Source: Candidatus Omnitrophota bacterium (lineage in GTDB: Bacteria; Omnitrophota; Gorgyraeia; 2-01-FULL-45-10). From it: DNA of 64,000 bases. The translations under genes and the position numbers were made by a program. Shown here one piece after another: positions 7,123 to 56,752 of this stretch; positions within the stretch are counted from its first letter, which is position 1; each line of letters starts with the position of its first letter. The notes below the pieces were generated by a model, which was not told the DNA's origin, ran no database searches, and worked only from the letters and a program-made list of their open reading frames with translations. Location of the stretch: contig JAUYOL010000007.1 of NCBI GenBank assembly GCA_030695905.1, positions 6,604-70,603 of the forward strand, written 5' to 3'.

Positions 7123-7132
7123 GGGGTAGTAA

Positions 7133-7981: not shown

Positions 7982-7991
7982 GGAGGTTTCC

Positions 7992-32596: not shown

Positions 32597-35500
32597 TTGT
32601 CTATGGGGAGAATTACCTTTTTTCTCATCGCATTTGTTTTAGCAGCATTTTCTGCTTTCTACGCAGGAGAGGCTTTCGCCGCGAACTTGAGACCTTCTAT
32701 CGGAACAATTACTCCTTCATCCGGCACCTCACCTCATGGAATAGCGGTAAATTTTACCGCCACTTATTCAGATCCCGACGGCTGGCAAAATATGCGGGAA
32801 GTCCGGCTGCTCATTAATGCTTCAGTAAACGGCGCAGATTGTTTTTATGCTTATTACGATGTCGCTACTAATAAATTATATCTGAAGAACAACGCAAATA
32901 CCGCATGGCTGGGTGGATACGATCCCCAATCTTCAAATACAATAGAGAATTCGTACGCGAAACTTAACTGTGCATCCACAACGGTATCCGGAAGCGGTAA
33001 TGCTTTAACAGTAAATTGGTCCGTAACATTTAAGCCTGCTTTCAAAGGCGTGAAGAATAGCTATCTTTATGTAAAGGATATTGCTGGTGCTTATAACGGC
33101 TGGGTCAAGAAAGGGACCTGGACGATTGCCAACAAAGCTCCTTCTGTAGGAGCTGTTACCCCTTCTTCTGGAACATCATATTCCGACCAGGCCATTAACT
33201 TTACCGCTACTTATTCCGATCCCGACGGATGGCAAAATATACAGCTTGTTCGTTTCCTCATCAATACTTCCACAAGCGGAACAAGATGCCTTTATGTGTA
33301 TTACGATCTCGCGAGCAATAAGCTCTACATCAGAAACGATGGAAATACCGCATGGCTGGGTGGATATGCTCCTCAATCTTCAAACATAATAGAAAGCTCC
33401 TATGTGAAACTTAACTGTGCTTCCACAACGGTATCCGGAAGCGATAATATCTTAACAATAAATTGGTCCGTAACATTTAAGCCTACTTTCAAAGGCGTGA
33501 AGAATGTCTATCTTTATGTAAAGGATATTGCTGGTGCTTATAACGGCTGGGTCAAGAAAGGCACGACGATAATCGCTGCGCTGCCATTGCCGCGAATAGC
33601 GACAACCGGCTTAGGTGATGCTATAGCTGGGGAGGATTATTTAGCTAGTTTGAATGCTACGGATGGAACGCCGCCATATGCATGGTCCATAGAAAGCGGC
33701 AACCTACCGAATGGTTTAAGTCTTAGCAGCGCAGGGACTATATCGGGAACTCCCGTACAGGCAGCATCCTTTAACTTTGTTATCAAAGTCACGGATTTAA
33801 ACCAGGCGACAGACACTCAAGCCCTATCTATAAATGTCCTGCCTACATTTCCGCTTATAACGGATGAAGAGCTTCTGGACCAGACAGAGGCAAAAGCCGC
33901 AATGTATTTTTATAACGAGATTTTATCTAACGGATTTGTAAAAGATACCGATTATAAGGACTTTTCGAGTATCGCGGCCACCGGTTTTGGGCTTGCATCT
34001 CTATGCGTTATGGCAGAGCGGTACCAGACTTCACCCAACTGGGTCATAACTCCGGAGCAGGCGAGAGCGCGTGTAAACCAAATATTGGACAATTGTGTAC
34101 GTTATCAGTCATATCAAGCTTTATCAGGGAATGGTTATGGTGTAGCAGGATTTCTATACCATTTCATAAAAGCGGATGGTACCCGCCAGGGCACATGTGA
34201 AGTCTCCACTATTGACATGGCGCTTTTTTTATCAGGCGCTATCGCTGCGGGTGAATATTTTGGCGGCGAAGTAAAGACAAAAGCCGATCAGATCTATAAT
34301 AGTATGAATTGGGCGTATTTTTTAAACACAGCTAAGCGCCAATTTTCGCATGGATGGTTTCCGGATAGCGGTATAATGCCTGCTACCTGGGACAGGCCCA
34401 CAGATGAGGCCATACTTGTTTCGCTCTTAGCTATAAGTGCCAATCTTAACAATTCAGATATGCTCATGACTATGTATAGTTGGCCAAGGGCGGTTGGGGA
34501 GTATGGTGGATATAGCGTTGTGAATTCTTATTTCGGCTCTTTGTTTACATATGTATTTGCCCATTGCTTCTTCGATTTTGAAAAGTTAGGCACGGATAAC
34601 CCCTCTTATGCCGGCTCAACAAATGTACCTGTTAACTGGTGGATGAATTCCGTTAATGCTGCCTATGCCAATAGGCAGTTCTGCATAGACAATGCTATCA
34701 ACTACGATTCCTATGACGAAAATAGCTGGGGCATCACAATCTGTGAATATCCATCCGGTCAATACAGTGATTTTTTGGGTGCCGCCCCATGTGAAAGCAA
34801 CTCCGCTACTCCTTATCATAACGGCACTATAGCACCATACGGCGCTATAAGCTCCATGCCGCTTATGAGAATATCTCCTGATGAAACTCCTGATATGAAT
34901 TCGGCGTTCAAGACGTTAAGGTATTATTACCAGACTTACTATCACCATCTTTGGGGTGAATACGGCCCGAAAGACTCTTTCAACCACAATAGGGAATTTA
35001 GTAACGCGTATTTAGGTATAGACGTAGGGCCGGAAGTCCTGATGATCGAAAATTACCGTTCAGGTCTTATATGGAATAATTTTATGAAGAATGGGAAGAT
35101 CCAAGCGGCAACGGCCAAGGTTTTTACCGGGAACTTGCTCGATCCTACAACTATGTATGTTGATGCATCTAACCTTAGTGATCCAGAGCAGGACGGATCA
35201 GTTATTCATCCATTCAATACAATTCAGAAGGCGATTGACAATAACAATCGAGGTTGCGTTATTGAAATAGCACCTGGAAGATATGTCGAGGGTGTTAAAA
35301 TTATTTCAAAATCTAATATAACCTTAAAAGGTGTTATCGGAGATCGCGACGATCAATTTAATACCACTGTAAATAGCGTTGTCGAATACGAATCAAATCA
35401 TGTGATAGATATAGAAGGCTCTATTAATATAGCGATTGATAGCCTTGTGATTAAACCAACTCATAATTCCTACGACCATACATTTGGAGGGGGAGGGGTA

Positions 35501-36364
35501 TACAATTTTGACTCAGATTACACGACAATTATGAATAGCATTATAACTGGCACGAGAGCTGAAAGCGGATATGGGATATCTTGTTACAGGAGCGTAAAAA
35601 TGTTGATAACTAACAACCTGATCACCAATAACAGCAATAATTATGGCGGAGGTATATATATTTACAATGATTTTACAAACAATGACATCAATGCAAATGA
35701 GCGTGCCGCAGAGATAACCAACAATGATATAATCAATAATGTTGCATGGGGCACAGGGGCCGGTATTTCTGTGACTGGCTATGAAGTAAGCGGTTATGCA
35801 AGAACCAAGATTTTAATCCGTAATAATCGCGTTTACAACAATAGTTCTGATCGCTATGCAGGCGTATATCTGAAATATTCGGAAGGAGAGGTGCAGAATA
35901 ACACAATAGTAGGCAATTGTGCTGATTGGCTATCAGGAGGCGGCGTGTCCTGTCTCTCGTCCATCATCTTGGTCTCTAACAATATAATACACAGGAATAC
36001 CGAATCCCTGCAAGGCGGGGCCGGTATATACATTTATGGCGGTGCAGTTACTGCCGCTAACAATGTGGTAACAGAAAACAATGGAATTGGAATAGGTTGC
36101 GCAGGTAACTTTACCGCGGTGTTAATGTACAACAACCTGTATGGTAATAGCAATGACTATTCTGGCTCTGTTCCTGGAACAGGGTCTATTTCAGCATCAT
36201 CTCTATTTGTTGCTTCAGATACAGACGGAGATCCATCTAATGATGATTACCATTTACAACCAGGCTCGCCGTGTATCAACGCAGGCGACCCTGCTATTGC
36301 ATACAACGACAAAGACGGCACTCGAAATGACATGGGTGTTTACGGTGGGCCTAATAGTATGTGA
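32597..36364 (+). CDS. secreted 1255-aa modular protein: two tandem ~149-aa DPDGWQN-type domains, putative Ig (He_PIG) domain, (alpha/alpha)6 glycosidase-like domain (DUF3131/putative glucoamylase-like), C-terminal right-handed parallel beta-helix repeats
   Basis: signal peptide; internal tandem duplication; NN-x-I/V-x-N PbH1 repeats; DYHLQPGSPCINAGDP end typical of beta-helix proteins. Confidence 0.85.
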   Translation: MSMGRITFFLIAFVLAAFSAFYAGEAFAANLRPSIGTITPSSGTSPHGIAVNFTATYSDPDGWQNMREVRLLINASVNGADCFYAYYDVATNKLYLKNNANTAWLGGYDPQSSNTIENSYAKLNCASTTVSGSGNALTVNWSVTFKPAFKGVKNSYLYVKDIAGAYNGWVKKGTWTIANKAPSVGAVTPSSGTSYSDQAINFTATYSDPDGWQNIQLVRFLINTSTSGTRCLYVYYDLASNKLYIRNDGNTAWLGGYAPQSSNIIESSYVKLNCASTTVSGSDNILTINWSVTFKPTFKGVKNVYLYVKDIAGAYNGWVKKGTTIIAALPLPRIATTGLGDAIAGEDYLASLNATDGTPPYAWSIESGNLPNGLSLSSAGTISGTPVQAASFNFVIKVTDLNQATDTQALSINVLPTFPLITDEELLDQTEAKAAMYFYNEILSNGFVKDTDYKDFSSIAATGFGLASLCVMAERYQTSPNWVITPEQARARVNQILDNCVRYQSYQALSGNGYGVAGFLYHFIKADGTRQGTCEVSTIDMALFLSGAIAAGEYFGGEVKTKADQIYNSMNWAYFLNTAKRQFSHGWFPDSGIMPATWDRPTDEAILVSLLAISANLNNSDMLMTMYSWPRAVGEYGGYSVVNSYFGSLFTYVFAHCFFDFEKLGTDNPSYAGSTNVPVNWWMNSVNAAYANRQFCIDNAINYDSYDENSWGITICEYPSGQYSDFLGAAPCESNSATPYHNGTIAPYGAISSMPLMRISPDETPDMNSAFKTLRYYYQTYYHHLWGEYGPKDSFNHNREFSNAYLGIDVGPEVLMIENYRSGLIWNNFMKNGKIQAATAKVFTGNLLDPTTMYVDASNLSDPEQDGSVIHPFNTIQKAIDNNNRGCVIEIAPGRYVEGVKIISKSNITLKGVIGDRDDQFNTTVNSVVEYESNHVIDIEGSINIAIDSLVIKPTHNSYDHTFGGGGVYNFDSDYTTIMNSIITGTRAESGYGISCYRSVKMLITNNLITNNSNNYGGGIYIYNDFTNNDINANERAAEITNNDIINNVAWGTGAGISVTGYEVSGYARTKILIRNNRVYNNSSDRYAGVYLKYSEGEVQNNTIVGNCADWLSGGGVSCLSSIILVSNNIIHRNTESLQGGAGIYIYGGAVTAANNVVTENNGIGIGCAGNFTAVLMYNNLYGNSNDYSGSVPGTGSISASSLFVASDTDGDPSNDDYHLQPGSPCINAGDPAIAYNDKDGTRNDMGVYGGPNSM
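32693..33586 (+). repeat. intragenic tandem duplication (2 x 447 bp), ~85-95% identical
   Basis: 32693-33139 versus 33140-33586; near-identity over ~160 bp (e.g. aaacttaactgtgc.tccacaacggtatccggaagcg...tataacggctgggtcaagaaagg). Confidence 0.9.
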
Positions 36365-36381
36365 TAGTCTAACCCTGTAGT

Positions 36382-36410: not shown

Positions 36411-36677
36411 TAATCTCCGACGGGACAAGAGACAGCATCAGCGCTGATTAAATTCGGACAATTTTAGGGCCATTGTGCTTGTTTTCTCGTGCTGTTAAAT
36501 AACAAAAAAGTTTGTTTTAATTCGTTGAATATAGTATGTCATATGGTATTATTTAAGTAGGTAAAGAAAGTTTAAAATTTTCAAAAAACGGTTTAAGTAA
36601 ATTTATCTTCAGGAAGGGAGGTGAAAAAAATGAAGACAGAAACACTAAAAAGTAAATTCAAAAAGGAGGATATTACA

Positions 36678-37484
36678 ATGAGGAAATTGACTTTAATTTC
36701 AGTGGCTCTTGTTGTAGTGGTGTGCTTTGCCATCACTGCTCAAGCTGCTACAACAGACAAGACTGTGTCTGTAACCGCGAGTGCCAGTATCACTGGTGCT
36801 ACGTCACTGACTAAGGATGCGTCAGCGTTTACGTATGGGACGACTAATGCGGACGCGTTTCCTACAGTTCCGGCCAGTAAGAGAGTTGTGCTCACCTATT
36901 CAAGTAACTATAACCCGTGGAAGATAGACATCTACACCAACAACACGCAGATACCTACCAAGGCTTCTAACCCAACAAATGGTTCTTATGCAAAGGGCGG
37001 TTTGGTAGCCGGTTCTGTTGCGCCGTATAATACGGTTCCGCTAAAGTGGGTTGCGAAGGATCCCGTTTCTGCGGCTCCAGTAGCGTCGGCGATCAATTTT
37101 CAAACCTCATACAACTTTGTTAAGGATATAAGGGATGAAGATGATCCTGCAACGAACGTGGATAATCCGCTCACTCCTGCTATCGATGAAATTTCTAACG
37201 AGTCATGGGACACACCGATAGTGGTAGGGGGTAACACCTACAATGGAGCTTTCACAAATGGATACCCTAACGTGGCGTTTGGTCCTGTAGTAGGTGGCGG
37301 TGGTGTGTGTGTAGATCCGACAAATACAGCTTCAGGCCCGAATCAGTATAGGGGCGATCCTATAAATGGCACTATCGCGGTATATGTCGCCGGTCTGTTT
37401 ACAACAGGCGGGGTGACTCCTGCGGCACCGGCGTCGGCCGGATCTTACAGCGGCACGATCTACTTCGACCTGTATCACCCATAG
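36678..37484 (+). CDS. secreted 269-aa protein (putative fibre/surface subunit); C-terminal half homologous to the C-terminus of the 2216-aa protein
   Basis: AAGGAGG RBS 8 nt before ATG 36678 (alternative GTG/ATG starts at 36621/36630); signal peptide MRKLTLISVALVVVVCFAITAQA; mature N-terminus ATTDKTVSVTASASITGA. Confidence 0.7.
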   Translation: MRKLTLISVALVVVVCFAITAQAATTDKTVSVTASASITGATSLTKDASAFTYGTTNADAFPTVPASKRVVLTYSSNYNPWKIDIYTNNTQIPTKASNPTNGSYAKGGLVAGSVAPYNTVPLKWVAKDPVSAAPVASAINFQTSYNFVKDIRDEDDPATNVDNPLTPAIDEISNESWDTPIVVGGNTYNGAFTNGYPNVAFGPVVGGGGVCVDPTNTASGPNQYRGDPINGTIAVYVAGLFTTGGVTPAAPASAGSYSGTIYFDLYHP

Positions 37485-37585
37485 TAGCCGTATTTTTTGT
37501 TTGCAGTACGATTGTTAACGAGCGAGCCCTGTTAGAACCTTTGGTTCTGACGGGGCAGAACAAAAGTAGATAAGAGAGGATAATA

Positions 37586-38410
37586 GTGCCTGGGATGCGT
37601 ATTACAAGAATATTGGCCATTATGCTGCTTACAATGTCATGTCTGTTCTTAAGCCACAGTTCGTGCTATGCGGCTCTTGTAGTTGATCCGGAAAGCATCG
37701 AGCTTGTGGCTAGTCCCGACACCGCTACGAACGGCGTTTATAATGTTATAAACGAAGGTGGCGAGTCAGTGCACGTGTTGGTACAGCCTGAAGAATGGCC
37801 CAGATCAGCAACGCCAAAGAACGATATATCTGTTGATAAATGGCTGACTGTAACTCCGATGGAATTTGATATAGTCCCGCAGGAACGGAAAAAGGTGCAG
37901 TTCGCGATAAATCCCCCCACTAACCACGGGGGAGAATTATCGGCGATGATATTTTTCGCCACGACCTCTCCCAAAGGCATGATGAACATAACCACCAGGA
38001 ATGGCGTCTCTCTTTACGCGGCCTTCGCCGATACAATGCGCCTGGAATGTTCGATATCAGATGTTCGCATAGATAGGTTTGAGCAGAAGACAAATAGCGG
38101 CATAGTTGACAGGGGTATCGTTTTCACCATAAATGTTGAGAACAATAGCAATGTTCATATCAGGCCTACCGGCTCTATCGTGATAACGGGAGAAGACGGC
38201 AGTAAGCATGATCTGAATATCGAAAGAGGATTTCCGGCTTATGCCGGTGGAAAAGAAAGCTATCAGGTTTTGTGGGATAAAAAGGACATAACGCAGGGAA
38301 AATACGAAGCTATGATAACGCTTGATTATGGAAAGTTATATAAGCTGGACAAAAAAATAGAAAAGAAGATGAGTTTCATCGTTAAAAAAGATGGAACGGT
38401 CTCTTTTTAA
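37586..38410 (+). CDS. periplasmic two-domain beta-sandwich-like protein (possible assembly-chaperone analogue)
   Basis: signal peptide; beta-rich; ALVVDPESIELVASP...VHVLVQPEEW start reminiscent of PapD-like chaperones; no confident family assignment. Confidence 0.55.
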   Translation: MPGMRITRILAIMLLTMSCLFLSHSSCYAALVVDPESIELVASPDTATNGVYNVINEGGESVHVLVQPEEWPRSATPKNDISVDKWLTVTPMEFDIVPQERKKVQFAINPPTNHGGELSAMIFFATTSPKGMMNITTRNGVSLYAAFADTMRLECSISDVRIDRFEQKTNSGIVDRGIVFTINVENNSNVHIRPTGSIVITGEDGSKHDLNIERGFPAYAGGKESYQVLWDKKDITQGKYEAMITLDYGKLYKLDKKIEKKMSFIVKKDGTVSF

Positions 38411-38446
38411 ATGTGTGCTACACAGTAGGCTTAAGGGGATGATTAA

Positions 38447-41400
38447 TTGCGTAACCTGAGGATCGCACTTCTGGTAATAGGAACCATAGCCAGCCTTATC
38501 TCATTCAAAGATAAGGGGGTGGTGAACCTTGCGCATGACGCTAAGCCGATAGTTGCCGAAGCATATCACTCGCTTCAAAGTATGTTGCCGCCGCCGGTGG
38601 CCGCAGGTCTTTCAGCCTTATCGCGGCAAGTTATGAAAAGTCAAATCCCATCTTCAAGCAGCATTCCATCTCCGGTAGAGCTTATTGCAAATGATACCCT
38701 TGCGGATGATAATATCCAAGATATTGTAGCAGGTGCACCTGCTGACATTAAGTTGCAAAATACTGCCACCCCCGTGACCGATAACCAACAGCCCGCACCT
38801 GCCCCTGTTGAAACTATAGTTTATGGTATGACAGGTACTGTTCTGCCTGAAGATTCTACCGGCAATACTAATACCAACGCAATAACAGACAACAATAATA
38901 GTATAGAGACCTTGACGGCGCAATCCAGCCCGAGCCCGAGTAATATATTTATAGCAAGCATAACTCCTAATAGTGGCATTGCCGGAACAAGCGTTATAAT
39001 TCAAGGAGCGGGTTTCGACAGTAATTTATCAAACAATGTGGTTAAGTTTGGAAACGTTAGTTCCTCCTCCGCAACTTATGTATCTAAAAATCAGCTTCGA
39101 GCAACAATTCCACAGGGTCTTTCCGCAGGCTTTACAAATTTATCGGTAAGCGTAAACGGCACACCAAGCAATTTATTTCTTTTCGACATACTTAAAAATA
39201 CGAGTGGTAATATATTTGCAGATGACACCCAAAACATATTACCGGCAGGCCTTGCTATAACGGATTTACCCGTTGTAAGGACAGCCGATGTAGACAATGA
39301 TAACGATCTGGATTTATTTATGATTGATACCTTCTTGAGTTCGGTTTATGTTTTAATAAATGACGGTAACGGCAACTTTACTAATGAAACATCTTCCACG
39401 TTGCCCGCGATAGCCGACCCGTCATCTATTACCGATGCGGTCTTCGGGGACACGAATCAAGACGGCCATCAGGATATAGTATTGGCTTATTCAAGCGGCC
39501 AGTCTGTCAGAATCCTTTTAAATAGCGGCTTAGGGAGTTTTAGCGATGTTACTGCATTAAATCTACCAGCAGTTTCCGGGAATGCGGTTAGTCTGGATTT
39601 AGGCGATGCAAATGGTGATGGCGCGCCCGATATAATAATTGCCAACAAAAATACCAGAGATATCCTGCTTATAAACAATTCAGGCGGCGTGTTCTCAAAA
39701 GATGCCGGTTTTAATCTGCCGGGCGTAATAGATGGTAGTTCCGATATCCGATTTTGTGATTTAAATAGCGATGGCGCAGTTGATATTATTACGGCTAACA
39801 ATGAGGTGGTAGACACAAGTAGCCTGAGAAATCGTGTGTATGTAAATAATGGACTGGGTCAATTTACTGATAATACAGAGATAATGCTGCCTGGAGATAA
39901 CGAATATAGCGAAGTTCTTGATTACGGAGATGTCGATGGTGATGGTGATATCGATGTAGTAGTGGCAAACCATGACCAGAACTCAATACTTATAAATGAC
40001 GGCGCGGGCATATTTACGGATGAAACATCTGCGCGCATACCAACTAACTATTTTGTATCCAAAGATACGAAGTTAGGAGATGTTAACGGAGATGGATATC
40101 TTGACATAGTGATGCTGGGCGAAGATAAGATGTCGCTATTGATTAATGACGGACAAGGCTCATTTACGGAAGGCTCCATAAAGCTTCCGGATTATAAAAG
40201 CATACCCGCTCTCTTGGGGGGTAAGGATGTGCAGGTCGCCGATATAAACGGCGACGGCGCCCTGGATATAATAGTCGCCGGCAACTCATTGCGTTTTCTC
40301 ATAAATAGCGCTTCTAACAAAGCGCCTGTCCTGGACAGCATAGGAGACAGAAAGATCGAGTTTGGCAAAAAACTGGAGTTTAATGTAACAGGTTCAGACC
40401 CCAACGACGACGCGCTGATATTTTTAGCCGAAAATCTGCCGGACGGAGCCGCTTTCCTATCGAAAATGTTCAGGTGGGTTCCAGCCGCAAATGATATAGG
40501 CCAGCATAAAAATGTGCGTTTTATAGCAAGAGAAGATACGCCGGCGGCTTTGGAGGCCTTTGAGGATATAACCATTACCGTAGTGGGCTTGCCTCCCATA
40601 ATAGATAGCTATATACCGAAAGAGCTTGACCTGAATTTGGGTATCGGCGAAATAGTACAGTTCGGTATAATTGCGTACGATCCGACCGGCGGCGCGCTTA
40701 CATTCAAGTGGTTCTTGAACAGCGTTCAAGTAAAGTCGGTAAGCGGCTTTAAGTCTTCGCTTATATTCATAGTCCCGAGGATAGGGGAAAATATAATTGA
40801 GGCGAGGGTGGAAAACGGCACCGGCAACGATTCTGTTTATTGGGATGTAAGCGTCGGTGTTACGCAAAATAGGCCTCCTCAAATAATAGGTTATGAACCG
40901 CAGGAATCCGCCATAAACATAGATCCTAACGCCGGAGGAGCTTTTAATTTCGCGGTCACAGCGAGCGATCCCGATGTGGGCGATTCCATTTCATATACAT
41001 GGAAATTCGATGACAATGTTCTGTCCAGCGGAGCTGCTTTAAGTTCAAGCGCATTTGCCGGGTCAGCCAGTGTGGGAAATCATGCGCTGCAGGTTTCAGT
41101 AAGCGATGGGCATAATGCCGCGGTTACGCGTAGCTGGACGATCAATATTACCGTTATCCCGGCATACACCTTGACCATCAATGCGGTCAATGGCTCGGTA
41201 AGCATGAATCCCAACAAGACGACTTATTCCGCCGGTGAAGAGGTTGCGATTACCGCTACGCCGGATACCGGATATACCTTTAACAGCTGGTCAGGCGATG
41301 TATCAGGCACGACGAACCCCGCTATTATCACCATGAACGCCAATAAGACGGTCACCGCGAACTTTACCGTGATACCGCCAGTCGCAATCACAGCCTCGGC

Positions 41401-44400
41401 GCAAGCGGGCGGCTCTATCAGCCCGTCGGGTACAGTAAGTGTCGCCTATGGCACAAACCAGACATTTACAGTTACAGCCGATACAGGATACAGCATCGAT
41501 CAGGTGCTTGTAGATGGCTTGGCCGTAACCCTCTCAAACGGAACATATACCTTTAATAATGTAACGGCCGCTCACACGATCTCGGCAAGCTTTGTTTCAA
41601 GCCTCAGTATCAGTGACCAGATCATACAGAAATCTTTCAACTATTTCTGGAATGAGACCGATAATCCTGAGACAGGATTTACTCGTGACAGACTCGCAGT
41701 AAAGAGTGAAGACCGCACCGCCGCTTTTGACGTTCACTACAACAGGGCGAGCCTGGCGGCAACCGGCTTCCAATTGGCAGCCCTATGTGCGGCGGATAAT
41801 GATCCCAATATTGCCGGCACAGTCACGCATGACCAGTTAGAGGCACGGGCAACTCTGATAATGGACAAATTACTGGATATTCAAGGCAAACAAAATCCTG
41901 ATGACCAGGCCACATGGGCAAAGTGGGGCAAGGACGGGTTCTTCTATCATTTTGTTGACATAGATACCGGCGAACGTTATTCCGGATCAGAAGTTTCTAC
42001 CATTGATACGGCGATAGTCGTTGCGGGGGCTATAACAGCGGGGAATCATTTTGGAGGCGACCTTAAAAATAAGGCTATGGATATATATCGCAACGTGAAC
42101 TGGAAAGCGTTTCTTGACACGAACCCTATAGTCCTGAATCACCACGACGCAGTCAACCCATCATATAATAATATCTATCATGCATGGGATCCGGAGACTG
42201 TTGCAAACGGCGGATTTTATGGCCACTGGGATTATACGAACGAAAGTCTCATTCTGTACCTGTTGGCGACCGTTTCGCCCGCAGATAATTACGCTGTTCC
42301 GGCAGACGTGTTTTACACAATTCGACGAGAGCTTGGTAATTACGGCCAAAATAGCAATCCTATAGTAAAGTCGTGGGACGGTGCATTGTTCGAATATCAG
42401 TACACTCAGGCGTTCTTCAATTTTAAAGATGCCTCAGGCAATCCTCTATATGACGGGCAGGGAGTAAATTGGTGGGATAATTCAGTCGAGGCAACAAGGG
42501 CGAATAAGCAGTTTTGCAATTATTTTATTAATAAGTTTGCCGCCCAAGAAGATCTTTGGGGATTAACGGCCGGTTACACAGATGGCCTTAACTATGGCGT
42601 TTATGGAGCGCCGCCGGCAGGACTTGCGGTAACCGATCCCGACGGGACCGTATTCCCCGCTGCTGTCGCCGGCTCCTTGCCGTTCTTGCCGGATGAGGTT
42701 ATGCGCGCGTTAAACAAGATGAAAGAATTGTACGACGATTACAATTACCCAATATGGGGTGATTATGGTTTTGTCAACTCGTTCAAACTTGGCGGCAGTT
42801 TAAACGATACCCCGTCGCCAGTATCTATCTTCTATTGCGGCATTGATGTAGGCATTGCGCTTGTGATGGCCGAAAATCAGAAGAGCGGCCTGATATGGGA
42901 TAATTTCTCTAATTTTGAAATAGCGCCGGGGGTAACGCTGAAATCCAGAATACAGCAGATAGACGGGCTTACTACGGATAAAACACACCATCTATTTGTG
43001 GACGATATTTCTGATGTTTCCAGTTTCCATATGGGGAAGATCGATGCTGAGCACACGCAATATCAAGTCAAATTTGATTTGAATACCGTCCAGGACGATC
43101 CTTATCTATTGTCCGTGCATTCATTTATGAATAAAGAATTGCCGAGCCACGTTGTGAGTGTAGCGATCAAGGTTAATAACGCCGATCCGTTTAGCGTGGA
43201 ATTCGCGTACAATAGCGACGGGAAAGATCCTGATCTTATGAAGTATATCCCGATAGATAGCAGCGGTCTGATTGAGGGTGAAAATACTATTACGCTTGAA
43301 TGGCAGGGTGCGACAGCGAACGCCACATGGCTTGCGTGGAAGAACATTGAAGTATCGACGCCATACGAGAATAATGTGTGGTCATTTGCCAGGAACGAAA
43401 CAGTTAATCCGAAAGTGTTGTTTGGGAGCGAATACAGGGCTGATGACACGTACTTTGTTGGCGCCGCTATTTCCAGTTTCGAGCAAGCGGTAGATAAGGA
43501 TGTTGAAAATTTCACGGATATACTATTTTACACGAATACGGCTACCGCTGAATATGCCTCTCTTACATTAAAAGCCCTGGATACGCAGAAAGATGCGAAT
43601 ACAAATATACAGATATTTGTTAATAGCGCGCCCAGGTATGTGTTTAATGGTTCCGTAACACCGGCCAGCCAGATAACTACACCCGGCTTTCAATTGGTTA
43701 ACGGATGGAACAGGATAACCATTTATCATCCCGGGGTAAGCGGGGCGGCACCCGGTGAGTGGATACGCTGGGACGGCATGAGCTTGACAGCGGCCAATCC
43801 CTCAAAATTTAATCCGCCGCAAGGGTTGTCGGCAGCGTCCCTTGGTTCGGATAAGATAAATCTCAGGTGGCAGGTTGTTAATGGCATAGATGTCAGGTAT
43901 AATATTTATCGTAGTCAAGCCAAAGGAGGAGTTTATACGAAGATAAACAGCGCGCCTTTGATTTCGGCACAACATCAGGATGCGGGCCTTGCGAATAACA
44001 CCGTCTACTATTATACTGTTACGGCATATGCGGATGCCGATCCGTCTACCGAAAGCGATCGTTCAGTGGATGCTTCAAAAACAACGGGTGCTTACGATGT
44101 TGATTACAGGGATGGCAGGGATCCGAACTCTTTTGGAGGTGACTCCAGCCCCCAGTTTACATATTTCATAATGTACAGGCACGATTGGACGGATGGTGCG
44201 GTAAGAAAAGTTACGCTCAGTCCTCAGGAGTCCGGATGGATAGGGCTTGCCGGTATTAATGTAAGCCAGGCAAACGCCCTGTCAATATGGATATATGGAA
44301 CCGGTACAGAGAAGATAGAGGTGGGCCTGCAGAATGCCGGTTCCGGACCGTCAACTTTCACGGTGACAGCCAGCGCCGGATGGCAGAATTTGCAGATAAA

Positions 44401-45097
44401 ATTATCCGACTTCAGTGGTATATCGCCGGTAAATCTGGATAAATTATCCATCAAGAATATTTCGTCCGGAGCGGTAACAATATTTTTAGATGACATATCT
44501 TTCATAAACGATGCGGCCGGGACAGCCACGCTTGACGTTGCGGCGAAGAACGTCAACGATAATTTACTCTCCACGGGCATGAGTTTTGATAACGATATGA
44601 TAAATTCGTATGCTCCCGCTAACCAGTATTTGGCCGTTAGCTATAATTCTCCCAGCGCTGTGAACTGGAAGATATGGATATACACGAAAAACGATAACGG
44701 CGACCCGCAATATTTGGACGGGCAGTATAACGGCCTGATGAGCTCAGACGGCCGATCCAGAATAGCTCTTATGTGGCGCATATACCCGACGATACAACAA
44801 GGCGGCATTACATGCAGGGTGACTTCCGATGTGTACAGTGATGCCAAGATGACATGGAATTATATAAAGGACCGCAATGATTCAGACTGGGCGGCTGCGA
44901 ACCCTGCCGGTGCCGAATATTCAGTGGCGGCTTTCGGAAGGAAGAATGAATGGGCATATATCGCGCCTGTTCCGCCGGGGTTAGGTGACCGGAATCCGGT
45001 TAATAACACTTTTTACGTTTATTTAGGCGGTGAGTTTGGCTCGGCGAATCCGGGCGATTATTCCGCCAGGATATATTTTGACATTACCCATGAATAA
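38447..45097 (+). CDS. 2216-aa modular surface protein: N-terminal anchor, IPT/TIG, seven FG-GAP repeats (beta-propeller), Ig/cadherin-like domains, two InlB-B-repeat (List_Bact) domains, (alpha/alpha)6 glycosidase-like domain paralogous to the 1255-aa protein, FN3, CBM11-like domain, C-terminal subunit-like domain
   Basis: TTG start after AAGGGGATGA; FG-GAP motifs GD.NGDG..DI; GYTFNSWSGD repeats; EVSTIDTAIVVAGAITAG..FGG shared with the 1255-aa protein; C-terminus ...WKIWIYTKND...ARIYFDITHE. Confidence 0.85.
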   Translation: MRNLRIALLVIGTIASLISFKDKGVVNLAHDAKPIVAEAYHSLQSMLPPPVAAGLSALSRQVMKSQIPSSSSIPSPVELIANDTLADDNIQDIVAGAPADIKLQNTATPVTDNQQPAPAPVETIVYGMTGTVLPEDSTGNTNTNAITDNNNSIETLTAQSSPSPSNIFIASITPNSGIAGTSVIIQGAGFDSNLSNNVVKFGNVSSSSATYVSKNQLRATIPQGLSAGFTNLSVSVNGTPSNLFLFDILKNTSGNIFADDTQNILPAGLAITDLPVVRTADVDNDNDLDLFMIDTFLSSVYVLINDGNGNFTNETSSTLPAIADPSSITDAVFGDTNQDGHQDIVLAYSSGQSVRILLNSGLGSFSDVTALNLPAVSGNAVSLDLGDANGDGAPDIIIANKNTRDILLINNSGGVFSKDAGFNLPGVIDGSSDIRFCDLNSDGAVDIITANNEVVDTSSLRNRVYVNNGLGQFTDNTEIMLPGDNEYSEVLDYGDVDGDGDIDVVVANHDQNSILINDGAGIFTDETSARIPTNYFVSKDTKLGDVNGDGYLDIVMLGEDKMSLLINDGQGSFTEGSIKLPDYKSIPALLGGKDVQVADINGDGALDIIVAGNSLRFLINSASNKAPVLDSIGDRKIEFGKKLEFNVTGSDPNDDALIFLAENLPDGAAFLSKMFRWVPAANDIGQHKNVRFIAREDTPAALEAFEDITITVVGLPPIIDSYIPKELDLNLGIGEIVQFGIIAYDPTGGALTFKWFLNSVQVKSVSGFKSSLIFIVPRIGENIIEARVENGTGNDSVYWDVSVGVTQNRPPQIIGYEPQESAINIDPNAGGAFNFAVTASDPDVGDSISYTWKFDDNVLSSGAALSSSAFAGSASVGNHALQVSVSDGHNAAVTRSWTINITVIPAYTLTINAVNGSVSMNPNKTTYSAGEEVAITATPDTGYTFNSWSGDVSGTTNPAIITMNANKTVTANFTVIPPVAITASAQAGGSISPSGTVSVAYGTNQTFTVTADTGYSIDQVLVDGLAVTLSNGTYTFNNVTAAHTISASFVSSLSISDQIIQKSFNYFWNETDNPETGFTRDRLAVKSEDRTAAFDVHYNRASLAATGFQLAALCAADNDPNIAGTVTHDQLEARATLIMDKLLDIQGKQNPDDQATWAKWGKDGFFYHFVDIDTGERYSGSEVSTIDTAIVVAGAITAGNHFGGDLKNKAMDIYRNVNWKAFLDTNPIVLNHHDAVNPSYNNIYHAWDPETVANGGFYGHWDYTNESLILYLLATVSPADNYAVPADVFYTIRRELGNYGQNSNPIVKSWDGALFEYQYTQAFFNFKDASGNPLYDGQGVNWWDNSVEATRANKQFCNYFINKFAAQEDLWGLTAGYTDGLNYGVYGAPPAGLAVTDPDGTVFPAAVAGSLPFLPDEVMRALNKMKELYDDYNYPIWGDYGFVNSFKLGGSLNDTPSPVSIFYCGIDVGIALVMAENQKSGLIWDNFSNFEIAPGVTLKSRIQQIDGLTTDKTHHLFVDDISDVSSFHMGKIDAEHTQYQVKFDLNTVQDDPYLLSVHSFMNKELPSHVVSVAIKVNNADPFSVEFAYNSDGKDPDLMKYIPIDSSGLIEGENTITLEWQGATANATWLAWKNIEVSTPYENNVWSFARNETVNPKVLFGSEYRADDTYFVGAAISSFEQAVDKDVENFTDILFYTNTATAEYASLTLKALDTQKDANTNIQIFVNSAPRYVFNGSVTPASQITTPGFQLVNGWNRITIYHPGVSGAAPGEWIRWDGMSLTAANPSKFNPPQGLSAASLGSDKINLRWQVVNGIDVRYNIYRSQAKGGVYTKINSAPLISAQHQDAGLANNTVYYYTVTAYADADPSTESDRSVDASKTTGAYDVDYRDGRDPNSFGGDSSPQFTYFIMYRHDWTDGAVRKVTLSPQESGWIGLAGINVSQANALSIWIYGTGTEKIEVGLQNAGSGPSTFTVTASAGWQNLQIKLSDFSGISPVNLDKLSIKNISSGAVTIFLDDISFINDAAGTATLDVAAKNVNDNLLSTGMSFDNDMINSYAPANQYLAVSYNSPSAVNWKIWIYTKNDNGDPQYLDGQYNGLMSSDGRSRIALMWRIYPTIQQGGITCRVTSDVYSDAKMTWNYIKDRNDSDWAAANPAGAEYSVAAFGRKNEWAYIAPVPPGLGDRNPVNNTFYVYLGGEFGSANPGDYSARIYFDITHE

Positions 45098-46394
45098 TAT
45101 GAGAATGCTATATAAGAAGACCTGTATTATCGGGATTATCTTAGCGACGTCTGCCATATTTCAGCAAAATATTATGCTTGCTGCTACGGATAGGACGGTT
45201 TCTGTCGTGGGCACTGCCACGAAATCTGCGACACCCGGTCCGTTGCTCGATGACTTTAGATACGCGGCGCCCCTAAACCTATGGAGTGTTGGCACCGGCA
45301 CGTTCAGCAGCTCATTATTAGTTCCGCCACCAGCAAACGCGATTTGCACGGCGTCTTATATTAATGATTCAAATGCATATTCTGGCTATTCCATGAAGCT
45401 GGATTATAATGCTACCGCCGCGAATAGTTTCGTCGGCTATTACAGCCGGTTGGCAGCGCAGCCATTAACCGCGTATACTGCCATATCATTCTGGGTAAAA
45501 GGCGCGGTTGGCGGCGAATTTTTCAAGATACAGTTTAAAAATACCAGCACGACACCATATTCTTTTGCTGAGGGGACAGATACCTATTACTATAGTAGAA
45601 ACGAAGCCGCGGTATATATTACGGATTATCTGGACGGCGGCGTAACTACAACCTGGCGAAAGGTAACGATACCTTTTCATAATTTTGCCAATTTGGATGG
45701 GTGGAAGTCAATGAAAGAGTTTGTTGTAGTATTTGAAAATTCCCAATCTACAACTAATATAAGCGCAACAAGCGGGACAATCTATATAGACAATATTACT
45801 TTTGAAACTACGCCTGTCAGCGCGGTGCGGGTTGATCATTTTGGGGATAAGTTGGGAGTTTGTGCGTTAGGTGGTAATATGGGAACAGGAGCAGGCGACG
45901 GCGCATCGGCGAGCCTTAATAAATATAGCCTTTCGAATGCAATTAATGAATATGATCCCGGCGGATATCCTAACGGTTTAAAATTGGAGTACGATGTTAC
46001 TACCGGGTTTGCATATACATTTCTTATTTTTGGCGGGGCTAGTAACGCAAAGACGACAGTAGAACCAATAAAAGATAAAAGCGGCTGGATAGCGCTACCT
46101 CACGATTTCAGCGCTTATACAAAACTAACTCTTAGAGTAAAAGCAAAATCCGGTGCTGAAAATCCGAAACAAATAAAGATAGAATTAGTGGACAATGGAG
46201 CAGCCAGGGCTGTCATCATAGACCAGATCAGCGGCACCGACTGGCAGATCTATGAAGTACCCCTTTCCGCCTTTGCCTCTCTCGATAAAACCAGCATAAA
46301 ACAACTGACCTTTGTTTTTGAAGGCTGGCGCATAAATAGTGCCGGAGGAAGTAAAAGAGGAGTCGTTTTTATAGACTCGGTACAATTTGAGTAA
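45090..46394 (+). CDS. secreted protein with two CBM11/CIA30-like carbohydrate-binding domains
   Basis: signal peptide after MNNMRM; mature N-terminus AATDRTVSVVGTATKSA matches that of the 269-aa protein; domains ending TIYIDNITFE and VVFIDSVQFE; ORF track starts at 45030 but ATG 45090 fits the signal peptide and begins 5 nt before the upstream stop codon. Confidence 0.75.
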   Translation: MNNMRMLYKKTCIIGIILATSAIFQQNIMLAATDRTVSVVGTATKSATPGPLLDDFRYAAPLNLWSVGTGTFSSSLLVPPPANAICTASYINDSNAYSGYSMKLDYNATAANSFVGYYSRLAAQPLTAYTAISFWVKGAVGGEFFKIQFKNTSTTPYSFAEGTDTYYYSRNEAAVYITDYLDGGVTTTWRKVTIPFHNFANLDGWKSMKEFVVVFENSQSTTNISATSGTIYIDNITFETTPVSAVRVDHFGDKLGVCALGGNMGTGAGDGASASLNKYSLSNAINEYDPGGYPNGLKLEYDVTTGFAYTFLIFGGASNAKTTVEPIKDKSGWIALPHDFSAYTKLTLRVKAKSGAENPKQIKIELVDNGAARAVIIDQISGTDWQIYEVPLSAFASLDKTSIKQLTFVFEGWRINSAGGSKRGVVFIDSVQFE

Positions 46395-47141: not shown

Positions 47142-48851
47142 ATGGCGTTGCAGTCTGATCTGATAGGGCAACTTCTGGTAATGAGGGGTCTCATAAATAT
47201 GGAGAGCCTGGAGAGGGCCCTTCTTGAACAGGAGAAGCACAAGGAGCTGTTAGGCGAGACATTGATAAAATTGGGGCTCATAACGAGCGAACAATTTTAT
47301 ACCGCATTGGCAGGACAACTGGGTGTAGAATATATAAAGTTGAAAGACGTGACAATAGACCCTGCCGTAATTAATGAAATACCCGCAAAGTTCGCGTGTT
47401 ATTACGAGCTTATGCCAATAAAAGTAGAAGGCGATATGATAACTGTCGCAATGTCCAATCCGCTCGATATACATACTATAGACGACATAAAACTCCTGCT
47501 TAAAAAAGATATAAAGACGGTGCTTTCCGGTAGGGTTGATATCCTGGATGCTATAAAAAGGTATTATGGTGTGGGCGCTGAAACAATAGAGAAGATGGCG
47601 CCTGACGCGGATCAGGAAAAACTTGTAAGCATTCAATACCAGGAAACCCAGGATCTAATAGAATCCGTCGAAGACGCCTCAATAATAAAATTTGTGAATC
47701 AGGTGCTTTTAGAAGCTTACAGAGACAGGGCAACTGATGTTCATATAGAGCCTTATGAGGACGAGCTTATGGTAAGATACAGGATAGATGGCGTTCTTCA
47801 TGAGACAAAGGTTCCCCCCGCAATAAAGAGTTTTCAGTCGTCCATCATTTCTCGTATAAAAATAATGGCAAATCTTAATATTGCGGAAAGAAGGTTACCC
47901 CAGGATGGCCGTATAAGCATAAAGATAGGCAGTGACAAGATAGACTTGAGAGTGTCTATACTTCCTACGCCATATGGTGAAAGTGTCATGATAAGGATAC
48001 TCTCTTCCAACGTACTCTTCGGCCTTGAAAATCTCGGATTTTTAAAACCCGATCTGGAGATAATGGAAAAGATGATAAAGAAGCCTCACGGCATCATATT
48101 TGTCACCGGCCCGACAGGCAGCGGCAAGACAACGACCCTTTACGCCTCCTTAAGTAAAATAAACGACAGAGACAAGAAGATAATAACTATAGAGGATCCT
48201 ATAGAATATCGCCTTAAAGGTATAATGCAGATGCAGATTCAACCCAAGATTGGCTTTACTTTTGCGAATGCTTTGAGGTCGATGCTCAGGCATGATCCCG
48301 ATGTAATGATGGTGGGCGAGGTAAGAGACTATGAAACCGCGGAAATAACTATAAGGGTCGCGCTGACGGGGCATCTCGTGTTTTCTACCATACATACGAA
48401 TGACGCGGCAGGCGGCGTTACAAGGCTTATTGATATGGGCATAGAGCCGTTTTTGGTGGCATCGGCAGTCGAATGTTTTGTCGCGCAACGTTTGGTTAGG
48501 GTTATATGCAATAGTTGCAAAAAAGAATTAAAACCTGATAAGGAAATACTGAAAGAACTCGGTATTAATAATCCAAGCTTATCGAAGGTAAAACTATACG
48601 AGGGGAAAGGCTGTGAATCATGCAGATTTACCGGATACAAGGGCAGGACAGCCATTTATGAAATAATGGTTATGAGCGAGCCTATGCGGGAGCTCGTTTT
48701 AAAAAGAGCTTCTTCGGATCAGATCAAGAAGAAGGCAGTCGCTTTAGGCATGAGGACGCTGCGTCAAGACGGATGGGAGAAGATAGCTGTGGGCATCACG
48801 ACTCCGAGTGAGGTTATCAGAGTAACACAGGAAGGATCTTCGGAAGAATAG
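47142..48851 (+). CDS. gspE: type II secretion ATPase GspE
   Basis: N-terminal T2SSE_N/MshEN-like domain; Walker A GPTGSGKTTT; Asp box; C-terminal CxxC zinc motif. Confidence 0.9.
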   Translation: MALQSDLIGQLLVMRGLINMESLERALLEQEKHKELLGETLIKLGLITSEQFYTALAGQLGVEYIKLKDVTIDPAVINEIPAKFACYYELMPIKVEGDMITVAMSNPLDIHTIDDIKLLLKKDIKTVLSGRVDILDAIKRYYGVGAETIEKMAPDADQEKLVSIQYQETQDLIESVEDASIIKFVNQVLLEAYRDRATDVHIEPYEDELMVRYRIDGVLHETKVPPAIKSFQSSIISRIKIMANLNIAERRLPQDGRISIKIGSDKIDLRVSILPTPYGESVMIRILSSNVLFGLENLGFLKPDLEIMEKMIKKPHGIIFVTGPTGSGKTTTLYASLSKINDRDKKIITIEDPIEYRLKGIMQMQIQPKIGFTFANALRSMLRHDPDVMMVGEVRDYETAEITIRVALTGHLVFSTIHTNDAAGGVTRLIDMGIEPFLVASAVECFVAQRLVRVICNSCKKELKPDKEILKELGINNPSLSKVKLYEGKGCESCRFTGYKGRTAIYEIMVMSEPMRELVLKRASSDQIKKKAVALGMRTLRQDGWEKIAVGITTPSEVIRVTQEGSSEE

Positions 48852-48854
48852 CTC

Positions 48855-50072
48855 ATGCCCAAATTTATATACGAAGCTAAAACAGGCCCTAATGATGTAA
48901 TAAAAGGGGGCTTGGTTGCCGAATCAAAAAATGCCGCAGTTCAAAAGATAAGCCAGCTCGGATATTTTCTGCTGTCACTGGAAGAGGAGTCGGGCATATC
49001 GAACACATCGGTGAATAACAGGGCTTCTTTCCACGGAAGAATAAATCTTAAAGATATAACTGATTTCACAAGACAATTGTCGGATCTATTGGAGGCGGGC
49101 ATAAATATAGCAAAGGCCCTGGATATATTACAGTCACAGACCGTTAACAAGAGATTGAAGAAAGTCATATCAGATGTAAAGGATTTTTGCGTTAGTGGTA
49201 ATCCTTTGTCCGATGCTTTATCCAGGCATCCGAAAGTATTTCCGAATCTATATGTAAGCATGGTCAGATCCGGGGAGACCGGCGGCATGCTCGAGGGTAT
49301 ATTAAGAAGGCTGTCGGATTTTAATGAAAAACAGCTTGAGATCCAAACAAAGGTGAAGACAGCCCTTGCTTATCCAATATTAATGGCCGTGGTAGGCTTT
49401 GCCACGGTAGCGGTGCTGATAACTTTTGTCATACCCAAGATGGTTGTTATGTTCGCCGATTTTGGGCAGGCACTGCCGATTCCGACCCAAATATTATTAT
49501 TCATCAGCACCGTTGTTAGAAAATACTGGTTAGTGCTTATAGGGCTATGCGCCGCGATCGTAATTATAATTCGTAAAATGTACCGTACATCCGAAGGAAG
49601 GCGCGCGATAGACCGGTTTAAATTGGACTTTCCTTTGACCGGTCAGTTAATAAGAAAAGTGGAAATAGCAAGATTTGCAAGGACGCTCTCTACGCTCCTG
49701 GAAAACGGTGTGCCGATACTCGAGGCCATGAATATTACCCTGGAGACATTGAGTAACACTATTATAAAAGAAGATATAGAAAAGGCGTATCTTTCAGTTA
49801 GGGAGGGGGCAAGCCTTGCCAGTAGCCTTAACTTGGGTAAGATAATGCCTGCCTCCGTTATTAACATGATAGCTGTAGGTGAAGAAGGCGGCCATATGGA
49901 AAAGTCGCTTTTGAAGATAGCGCAGGGCTATGAGAGGGAATCCGATGAGGCGATAAAGATAATGATGTCTTTGTTGGAGCCAGTTATGATACTGACACTC
50001 GGCGGCATAGTCGGCTTTATCGTCGTAGCTATGCTTTTGCCGATATTTGAAATGAATTTTCTTGTAAGATAA
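48855..50072 (+). CDS. gspF: type II secretion inner-membrane platform protein GspF
   Basis: two T2SSF repeats, 3 TM segments, 405 aa. Confidence 0.85.
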   Translation: MPKFIYEAKTGPNDVIKGGLVAESKNAAVQKISQLGYFLLSLEEESGISNTSVNNRASFHGRINLKDITDFTRQLSDLLEAGINIAKALDILQSQTVNKRLKKVISDVKDFCVSGNPLSDALSRHPKVFPNLYVSMVRSGETGGMLEGILRRLSDFNEKQLEIQTKVKTALAYPILMAVVGFATVAVLITFVIPKMVVMFADFGQALPIPTQILLFISTVVRKYWLVLIGLCAAIVIIIRKMYRTSEGRRAIDRFKLDFPLTGQLIRKVEIARFARTLSTLLENGVPILEAMNITLETLSNTIIKEDIEKAYLSVREGASLASSLNLGKIMPASVINMIAVGEEGGHMEKSLLKIAQGYERESDEAIKIMMSLLEPVMILTLGGIVGFIVVAMLLPIFEMNFLVR

Positions 50073-50096
50073 CGTACTTAATTTTGGAGGATTGCC

Positions 50097-50507
50097 ATGA
50101 TATCTAACAAAAAAGGTTTTACGCTGGTTGAATTAATGCTCGTGGTTATAATAATAGGTGTTTTGGTCGCCATGGTGGCTCCAAGGCTCGCCGGAAGATC
50201 CGAACAGGCTAAGATAGCGGCGGCCCGCGCCGACATTAACGCAAATCTGGCATCAGCGCTTGATCTTTATGAAATCGATAACGGCGTTTATCCGGAAAAA
50301 CTGGAAGATCTTACAGTTAAGCCGGCCAGCGCGCCCAATTGGAAAGGGCCATACCTGAAAAAGAAGCCCATAGATCCATGGGGCAATCCTTATGTCTATA
50401 AATATCCCGGCACGCACGGTGATTATGACTTAAGTTCTCTTGGAAGATCCGGCACGGAGGGCCAAGAAGGAGCGGTGAATAGCTGGGACGAAGAGAAGGA
50501 GAAATGA
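50097..50507 (+). CDS. gspG: major pseudopilin GspG
   Basis: prepilin leader KKG|FTLVELMLVV; GspG signature ...KKPIDPWGNPYVYKYP. Confidence 0.85.
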   Translation: MISNKKGFTLVELMLVVIIIGVLVAMVAPRLAGRSEQAKIAAARADINANLASALDLYEIDNGVYPEKLEDLTVKPASAPNWKGPYLKKKPIDPWGNPYVYKYPGTHGDYDLSSLGRSGTEGQEGAVNSWDEEKEK

Positions 50508-52919: not shown

Positions 52920-53038
52920 AAAACCTAAAAAGTTTATTCAGGCCGGACAATCGAGCAGTTTCAATAGAGATCTGTGAAGGTTTTGTTAAAGCTGTAGAAG
53001 CTGAAATTTCAAGAGGAGAAAGACGGATAACGAACATA

Positions 53039-54349: not shown

Positions 54350-54358
54350 GTATTCGGT

Positions 54359-54898: not shown

Positions 54899-54963
54899 CC
54901 AGCCTTATTCTTAAACCAGATAATATACTTAACCAATTGACAAACAAGCATGTTATGATATAC

Positions 54964-55004: not shown

Positions 55005-55009
55005 TTAAT

Positions 55010-56742: not shown

Positions 56743-56752
56743 GAGGTGTTGT

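Follow-up and report, generated by a model that had tools for sequence, protein, structure and literature searches.

A putative usher-independent donor-strand module for the display of GH144-type enzymes and carbohydrate-binding proteins in Omnitrophota

The window analysed here, a stretch of 64,000 nucleotides from a Candidatus Omnitrophota bacterium (assembly GCA_030695905.1, contig JAUYOL010000007.1, positions 6,604 to 70,603), encodes between positions 36678 and 46394 a secreted small subunit, a PapD/WxLIP-like protein of 274 amino acids, a giant protein with a catalytic region of the glycoside hydrolase family 144 (GH144) type, and a secreted carbohydrate-binding module (CBM) protein. Together with their counterparts in related loci (L001, L003 and others), these proteins fall into three classes: donor-plus-acceptor, which is the small subunit with its head domain (socket) and free N-terminal strand (plug); acceptor-only, which comprises the giant and, elsewhere, proteins combining the head with a CHU_C domain; and donor-only, which is the CBM or glycoside hydrolase cargo. 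This three-class pattern is the grammar of donor-strand complementation, from which polar chains are to be expected: base <- (subunit)n <- cargo. The gene set probably encodes a chaperone-assisted, usher-independent donor-strand complementation system, forming a surface or extracellular scaffold that displays GH144-type enzymes and CBMs. It is proposed more tentatively that the module stands for a class of surface apparatus not recognised before and present in Omnitrophota, Elusimicrobiota and other uncultured bacteria, a 'cellulosome by strand donation' with no usher, a PapD/WxLIP-like chaperone and export by a route of type II secretion system (T2SS) or C-terminal domain (CTD) type. An earlier reading of the same DNA (the original prediction) had suggested for these genes either a donor-strand-type surface fibre or a module for sorting T2SS cargo.

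The small subunit, which shows 100% identity to NCBI 'Q8R38_01620', starts at ATG 36678 behind a strong Shine-Dalgarno sequence (AAGGAGG) and has 268 amino acids, one fewer than originally counted. In its AlphaFold2 (AF2) model (predicted local distance difference test, pLDDT, 85; predicted template modelling score 0.78), the N-terminal extension has no secondary structure (pLDDT 60–70). The best fold matches of this model among the solved structures of the PDB are TLP-1a/b, followed by chaperone-usher pilins, and the matches after TLP-1 are nearly all donor-strand pilins (CfaB, EcpD, Caf1, PapA, CsuA/B, Fim subunits, CupE, CanX and TasA). TLP-1a/b are fibrils from filtered pond water solved by electron cryomicroscopy, whose source organism is unknown (PMC11494351). 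The TLP-1 protomer has about 236 amino acids and an N-terminal strand predicted to be disordered by AF2, which in the fibril enters the cleft of another protomer's Ig-like head (PMC11494351). When the PDB was searched by sequence with profiles A1, A3 and A4 and with the head domain of P0117, neither TLP-1 nor any other meaningful match came up, so the relation between the subunit and TLP-1 is one of fold and architecture only. The donor-strand logic of the original prediction is borne out in that the subunit combines a free, conserved N-terminal extension with a head matching donor-strand-exchange fibres in the PDB. The head domain is covered by no Pfam family, and a search of NCBIfam gave no useful match. 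An exhaustive search of 1.84 billion representatives with a head-domain profile yielded 135 clusters, mostly stand-alone proteins of 210–300 amino acids, together with a few large proteins carrying the head at the extreme C-terminus (P0136, 2412 amino acids; P0199, 2091; P0191, 1170) and about 10 proteins of 530–620 amino acids in which it is N-terminal.

The C-terminus of the giant is related to the same head domain. The BLASTP match between the small protein and the giant is limited to the last 41 amino acids (E 2e-4), and hhalign of a profile of 39 small-protein homologues against the last 195 amino acids of the giant aligned 149 columns (probability 97.8%, E 1.2e-12). Profile A3, which was built only from 25 distant small subunits and is related to profile A1 at E 4e-47, matches residues 2024–2216 of the giant (domain E 1.2e-31) over profile positions 41–246 only, whereas the small protein spans the profile from end to end. 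In the window, L001 and L014, the alignment of the giant to A3 opens at positions 41–45, and since the N-terminal strand occupies positions 30–40 ('sksvsvsAtvs'), this strand is absent from the giant. The L011 giant aligns from position 21–23, but the additional stretch is the end of the preceding domain and is aligned with low confidence. As judged from these profile alignments, the giants of the window, L001, L011 and L014 carry a head domain without the strand. The original prediction had noted both the likeness of the giant's C-terminus to the small protein and its lack of a strand, and both observations hold, with the homology extending over the last 193 amino acids. Its description of the giant as a 'tip' is unjustified, as the acceptor-only protein of other loci has a C-terminal surface-sorting domain and resembles a cell-proximal base. 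One candidate strand in the giant ('GTATLDVAAKNV') was rejected, because it aligns to the second strand region (profile position 41 onward) and not to the donor strand.

Besides the head, the giant contains TIG, six FG-GAP repeats, PKD, Flg_new, GH144-like catalytic, fn3 and CBM-like domains. Its putative catalytic region matches XCC2207 (8xul, 2.2e-22) and an endo-beta-1,2-glucanase (5gzh, 9.5e-15) in a phmmer search against the PDB, and Glycoamylase in Pfam (6.5e-42), and is homologous in sequence to characterised GH144 enzymes. The giants of the window (38447–38600), L010, L012 and L013 and protein P0136 share a conserved N-terminus, in which a hydrophobic helix is followed by S-[LF]-[KR]-D-K-x-V-V ... 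P-[LI]-[VI]-A-E-[AS]-Y; this could serve as an anchor that stays uncleaved, or as a processing or sorting signal of an unusual type.

The N-terminal strand of the subunit recurs in the CBM protein. Translation of the 64 kb in six frames gives exactly two matches to the motif [ATVSP][ATVP]D[KRQN][TS]xS[VIL], one at 36750 in the small subunit and the other at 45183 in the CBM protein, and both sites directly follow a signal peptide. The near-identity of these two mature N-termini, which the original prediction had pointed out, is confirmed, and the general signal-peptidase-site bias by which it might have been explained away was checked and is not the case, since there are only these two motif sites. 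In the family, conservation of the 17 mature N-terminal residues (0.66) is as high as that of the core (0.60–0.65), compared with 0.47 for the signal peptide and 0.29 for a variable loop. The CBM protein possesses the strand and no head domain (no match to A1 or A3), and its orthologues retain the motif directly after the signal peptide (L001, STDRTVSVSASAEK; L011, AADKLASVSAAGTK; L014, IDETVSVGAGATK). When a 17-column hidden Markov model of the extension was run on 840 open reading frames (ORFs), all four CBM proteins were matched at the right position and ranked below the true subunits; those of L001, the window and L014 came next after the subunits, and that of L011 below a few weaker matches of chance level.

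If the peptide plugs into the head, the tags of cargo proteins should follow the peptide of the local subunit. A 10-residue probe from the subunit extension of each locus was therefore slid along the full length of every ORF of at least 100 amino acids in six frames. The best non-self match in all six loci lies 29–53 residues into the ORF, directly past the signal peptide of a secreted cargo protein (Table 1), which is carbohydrate-active in five of them. Shuffled cargo peptides reached the observed score at most once in 1000 in four of the six loci. Since the probes are wholly different between lineages and each is matched inside its own locus, the tag is not a quirk of one genome but is lineage-specific, co-evolving in subunit and cargo. 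A segment of the PapD-like protein (TRNGVSLYAA) resembling TDKTVSVTAS by eye scored only about 13 and did not co-vary with the plug, and was not used as evidence.

Table 1. Best non-self matches of the subunit-extension probes in six loci.
Locus	Probe	Match	Score	Matched protein
Window	TDKTVSVTAS	TDRTVSVVGT	31	CBM protein
L001	TDRTVSVTAS	TDRTVSVSAS	42	CBM protein
L011	DRTASVAASG	DKLASVSAAG	31	CBM protein
L015	SSATVAGIME	STSTLAGVYV	22	1629-aa GH144+CBM30 protein
L018	TVDLTEGITL	DVDVTELISV	22	1125-aa Malectin+GH144+F5/8C+CBM30 protein
L019	STGVPAFATL	STGTKTYASL	26	220-aa secreted protein

The 274-amino-acid protein, encoded between the subunit and the giant, has a signal peptide and no membrane anchor, and its AF2 model (pLDDT 88) consists of two immunoglobulin (Ig)-like domains. 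Its fold matches include chaperone-usher chaperones and WxLIP, with MSP/VAP and other PapD-like peptide-binding domains among the top ones. As modelled, it is a two-Ig PapD/WxLIP-like protein, which agrees with its original description as a beta-rich periplasmic protein. Of 29 family members searched individually against Pfam, 10 match WxLIP_HBD (best 9.6e-7) and five PapD_N (best 5.7e-4); some members have already been called 'PapD' by JGI. The family profile also reaches proteins of 346–349 amino acids with a DUF916 match and a C-terminal transmembrane helix, which is the WxLIP architecture. A metagenome-assembled contig from NCBI (L007, 1448–3542) encodes tandem DUF916-like proteins of 346–353 amino acids with C-terminal transmembrane helices and the same architecture, and no recognisable WxL neighbours were found in this locus (DUF916-like protein P0254). 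L009 (8727–18994) encodes a more remote PapD-like protein, which matches the family profile at E 3.5e-10, in a cluster with a 544-amino-acid protein containing two PapD-like stretches, a secretin and a 979-amino-acid protein with Por_Secre_tail. L009, in which no head-domain protein is present, was treated as a different system, and it may be another secretin-linked PapD-like system.

The region between the subunit and PapD-like genes folds into a stem-loop (minimum free energy of the intergenic region -34.4 kcal/mol, z -4.5). A similar hairpin (CCCCGUUAGA...UCUAACGGGG) with a varying stem middle occupies the same place in L010, L012 and L003, and the stem-loop of the window has no U-tract. 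Its role could be to fix the ratio of subunit to chaperone, as happens in pap and fim operons, or it could be a type of terminator used throughout the genome. The perfect Shine-Dalgarno sequence and the strong stem-loop are consistent with a major structural subunit. A related CUAACC...GGUUAG element follows the upstream gene for a 1255-amino-acid protein, at about 36380–36400.

The pair of subunit and PapD-like genes is present in every related locus. The order subunit, PapD-like protein, giant is found in the Omnitrophota loci L001, L003, L005/L012, L006/L011 (with two subunit genes), L010 and L013, and persists at identities as low as 30% and with two kinds of upstream context; L008 has the same order, with a third gene that opens with a TIG domain like the giant. 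The CBM gene followed by gspE, gspF and so on occurs in the window, L001 and L014, which are all three Omnitrophota loci with visible downstream DNA. The related-locus scan with profile A1 yielded only six loci. In L015 (Elusimicrobiota), L018 and L019, the pair is accompanied by GH144-like enzymes and CBM11/30 proteins, no T2SS is in view, and the acceptor-only protein consists of a strand-less head followed by a CHU_C/Por-type C-terminal sorting domain. The co-conservation on which the original prediction had proposed to be judged is thus observed for the gene set, and the T2SS follows it in the window, L001 and L014. Signal-peptide proteins of about 320–360 amino acids adjoin the head plus CHU_C proteins (L015, 8981–10018; L018, 14780–15784; L019, 4596–5675 and 8133–9089). 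Three of them, of 335–360 amino acids and not including that at L019 8133–9089, end in Phe, and they have weak Pfam matches (UPF0164, FadL-like); they might be outer-membrane barrels anchoring the acceptor-only base.

In the proposed mechanism, all components would be exported by Sec, and the head would be an Ig-like sandwich needing one further strand. The subunit would offer its head as a socket and its 17-residue extension, with alternating V/V/A/A/I, as a plug and could thus chain or polymerise, the giant GH144-type enzyme or adhesin a socket alone, as its last domain, and the CBM protein a plug alone. This distribution of sockets and plugs would give a polar chain, giant (acceptor only) <- (small subunit)n <- CBM cargo (donor only), for which we infer insertion of the strand, the length n and the cell-facing end. 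The 274-amino-acid protein would act as a chaperone that keeps the sockets filled and the subunits soluble in the periplasm pending assembly, and passage through the outer membrane in Omnitrophota would likely depend on the adjacent T2SS. There are precedents for strand donation by other partners, as TasA receives the N-terminus of the non-subunit TapA (PMC10151520), and for the WxL sandwich the completing strand is predicted to come from WxLIP (PMC10599100). The two hypotheses of the original prediction, fibre and cargo sorting, turn out to be mutually compatible. The strand acts in the manner of a loading tag for enzymes and CBMs.

Several points weigh against this mechanism. No usher (PF00577) was found among the window ORFs scanned, which also lack a sortase and an exosortase, as the original prediction had stated, and the called genes and ORFs examined in related loci gave none either. 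Classical donor-strand exchange without an usher is slow, and we know of no precedent for a T2SS exporting a fibre. The N-terminal hydrophobic segment of the giant has no obvious signal-peptidase site, and the location of this protein in the cell is thus uncertain. The PapD_N and WxLIP_HBD matches of the 274-amino-acid protein of the window are below the curated cut-offs, and hhalign of its family against the single E. coli FimC and EcpB sequences was not significant, so that the kinship with chaperone-usher chaperones rests on fold. The co-variation signal is weak in L015 and L018, where 41 and 92 of 1000 shuffles, respectively, reached the observed score.

The main rival explanation, which we consider unlikely, is a WxL-like, non-polymeric surface complex, in which the head would be an envelope anchor common to the small and the large protein, the 274-amino-acid protein a stable structural partner comparable to WxLIP, and the peptides, instead of inserting into the head, ligands of the PapD-like protein bound by beta-augmentation, in the way that FFAT motifs bind MSP domains. 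The MSP/VAP and PapD-like peptide-binding domains among the top fold matches of the 274-amino-acid protein would fit this explanation, and the logic of the WxL clusters is identical, comprising a small domain-only protein, a large one in which the domain is C-terminal, and a partner with two Ig domains (PMC9772566, PMC10599100). However, Pfam WxL matches none of 64 head-domain proteins searched individually at E<=1, nor any of 10 more at E<=0.1, the 274-amino-acid protein lacks the WxLIP transmembrane helix, the host is diderm, and the closest structures of the subunit are polymerising fibres. Moreover, the plug is highly variable between lineages and the PapD-like protein is conserved, a pattern more in keeping with a socket that varies than with a receptor that is conserved.

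A signal for T2SS cargo sorting or surface retention, with the head and/or the peptide recognised by the T2SS or by an outer-membrane tether and no strand exchange, is rather improbable. It would explain the T2SS after the CBM gene in three loci and the giant genes reported near T2SS-like loci of Omnitrophota (10.1101/2023.11.21.568195), but not the occurrence of the same module in L015, L018 and L019, where the sorting domains are of the CHU_C type and no T2SS can be seen, nor the co-located 1255-amino-acid secreted GH144 enzyme, which contains neither strand tag nor head domain; the pilin-like fold and the PapD-like partner would also be left unexplained. The neighbourhood rich in CBMs and glycoside hydrolases might suggest an ordinary lectin or carbohydrate-binding domain, i.e. 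a self-sufficient jelly-roll/CBM head with the peptide as a linker and a coincidental N-terminal likeness, but this is very improbable and already disfavoured by the two motif sites in 64 kb, the core-like conservation of the peptide, the co-variation of subunit and cargo in 6/6 loci and the constant pairing of the head domain with a PapD-like gene.

The module can be compared with known systems. It resembles chaperone-usher pili (Fim, Pap, Ecp, Csu/CupE) in its periplasmic two-Ig protein of predicted PapD-like fold, in a subunit predicted to consist of an Ig-like head and a free N-terminal extension with alternating hydrophobic residues, in a large functional protein with an extension-less, subunit-like C-terminal acceptor, as in the acceptor-only FimH and PapG, and in the stem-loop after the major-subunit gene. 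It differs from them in the lack of an usher in the window and the related loci examined, in a 274-amino-acid family without significant sequence similarity to FimC or EcpB, in a head of about 230 amino acids, which is far larger than a pilin, and in the neighbouring T2SS; donor-only CBMs or enzymes are, to our knowledge, unknown in chaperone-usher systems. The type V pilus (FimA/Mfa) logic, also invoked originally, does not apply, as a lipoprotein precursor, proteolytic maturation and a C-terminal donor strand are not found here. With TLP-1a/TLP-1b (CryoSeek; PDB 9ikj, 9ikk), its top structural match, the subunit appears from its model to share the signal peptide, the N-terminal strand disordered in AF2 and a bulky C-terminal Ig-like head, which in TLP-1 has long loops. 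TLP-1 is of environmental origin and assembles by donor-strand exchange, and no genes, chaperone or cargo have been described for it. The subunit has no detectable sequence similarity to it.

The WxL/Csc clusters of Firmicutes share the three-gene logic (small WxL protein, large protein with C-terminal WxL, and WxLIP, composed of DUF916 and DUF3324), WxLIP is a detectable relative of the 274-amino-acid protein, and the proposed role of Csc is carbohydrate utilisation. Unlike these clusters, the module has no WxL-domain (PF13731) match among the head-domain proteins searched, lacks W-x-L motifs in a D/R/GTxAG context, an LPXTG partner and a transmembrane helix in its PapD-like protein, and belongs to a diderm host, and no WxL domain is among the PDB fold matches of the subunit. 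We know of no description of donor-only cargo tags for WxL clusters. TasA/TapA of Bacillus subtilis is likewise a donor-strand fibre without usher, to which the non-subunit TapA donates its N-terminus, but it is Gram-positive, has no PapD-like protein, and TapA is a nucleator and not an enzyme or CBM cargo. The cellulosome (cohesin-dockerin) is a functional analogy only, as a plug-and-socket scaffold encoded in one locus and recruiting glycoside hydrolases and CBMs; its interaction chemistry and folds are entirely different, with no homology. The system, which the original prediction had called possibly undescribed, has relatives in the WxL-type gene logic and the TLP-1-like subunit fold, and its new features are the lack of an usher, the T2SS or CTD-type neighbourhood and the plug-only enzyme and CBM cargo. 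Literature searches on donor-strand, usher-independent and enzyme-display systems returned nothing relevant.

If the proposed mechanism is true, donor-strand complementation would be a general assembly device outside Proteobacteria that is workable without an usher, and the chaperone-usher chaperones, the Gram-positive WxLIP and the new family of candidate phyla would form one continuum. It would also provide a testable rule of enzyme attachment, namely a lineage-specific N-terminal peptide of 10–15 residues. Modules of this kind may be the producers of orphan freshwater fibrils of the TLP-1 type, and the operon, chaperone and cargo give a genetic handle for finding the producers of such environmental donor-strand fibrils. 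Characterised GH144 enzymes cleave beta-1,2-glucan, a periplasmic glucan in many Gram-negative bacteria. In L008, a solute-binding protein and a GH94 phosphorylase (4963–8654) are encoded directly upstream of the set of subunit, PapD-like protein and TIG protein. The GH144-like domains together with these two L008 proteins suggest the use of beta-1,2-glucan as substrate, and the GH144-like enzymes could be linked to attack on the beta-1,2-glucan of other cells. The module would also supply a mechanism for the proposed role of large surface proteins, encoded near T2SS loci of Omnitrophota, in attachment to other cells and polysaccharide attack on them. Prey adhesion and digestion are proposed for Omnitrophota giant genes near T2SS-like loci in 10.1101/2023.11.21.568195, and a term search of that source and of a later Omnitrophota genome preprint gave no mention of a PapD or pilus-type chaperone.

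The features of the window are listed in Table 2; all genes of the region lie on the + strand. The giant starts at TTG 38447 with AAGGGGA ahead. The CBM gene most likely starts at ATG 45099 and not at GTG 45030, and this ATG is one base past the TAA stop of the giant (45095–45101), a spacing that points to coupled translation of the acceptor-only protein and the donor-only one.

Table 2. Genes and sequence features of the window, with positions counted from its first nucleotide.
Feature	Nucleotide position	Residues	Strand	Basis
1255-aa secreted GH144-like plus beta-helix protein	32597..36364		+	Pfam Glycoamylase, He_PIG, NosD
Promoter-like site TTGAAT-16-TATTAT with TG, 5' of small-subunit gene	36525..36552		+	consensus scan only
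Small subunit, 268 aa, secreted, donor plus acceptor	36678..37484		+	
Small subunit, signal peptide	36678-36746	1-23	+	
Small subunit, N-terminal extension ATTDKTVSVTASASITG	36747-36797	24-40	+	
Small subunit, head domain		41-268		
Stem-loop, 14 bp, between subunit gene and PapD-like gene	37526..37556		+	
PapD/WxLIP-like protein, 274 aa, periplasmic, two Ig domains, no membrane anchor; proposed chaperone	37586..38410		+	
Giant, 2216 aa, multidomain	38447..45097		+	Pfam
Giant, GH144-type (endo-beta-1,2-glucanase-like) catalytic region	41507..43006		+	phmmer vs PDB, Pfam
Giant, acceptor-only head domain without N-terminal strand	44516..45094	2024-2216	+	hhalign, A3 profile
CBM30/CBM11-like secreted protein, donor-only cargo	45099..46394		+	CBM30 match
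CBM protein, predicted mature N-terminus ATDRTVSVVGTATK	45183-45224		+	
193-aa HExxH protein	46494-47075		+	
Complete T2SS: gspE, F, G, minor pseudopilins, J, K, PilM/N/O-like, ExeA-like ATPase, gspC, gspD	47142..58744		+	Pfam

The 1255-amino-acid enzyme opens with two near-identical repeats of about 150 residues (residues ~30–180 and 181–330). Its counterpart in L013 (4330–9792) has 1821 amino acids and is likewise encoded upstream of the subunit gene; there is none in L001. The secreted 193-amino-acid protein encoded between the CBM gene and gspE contains an HExxH motif (VHEMAHV) and matches no Pfam family, and may be a small metalloprotease. It is missing from L001 and L014, and is also encoded in L011 (20024–20608). 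The T2SS noted in the neighbourhood by the original prediction is complete, and its GspD secretin (56753–58744), which comprises STN, N0, Secretin_N and Secretin domains, shows an unusual fusion to a C-terminal TonB_C domain (residues 586–650, E 2.7e-9).

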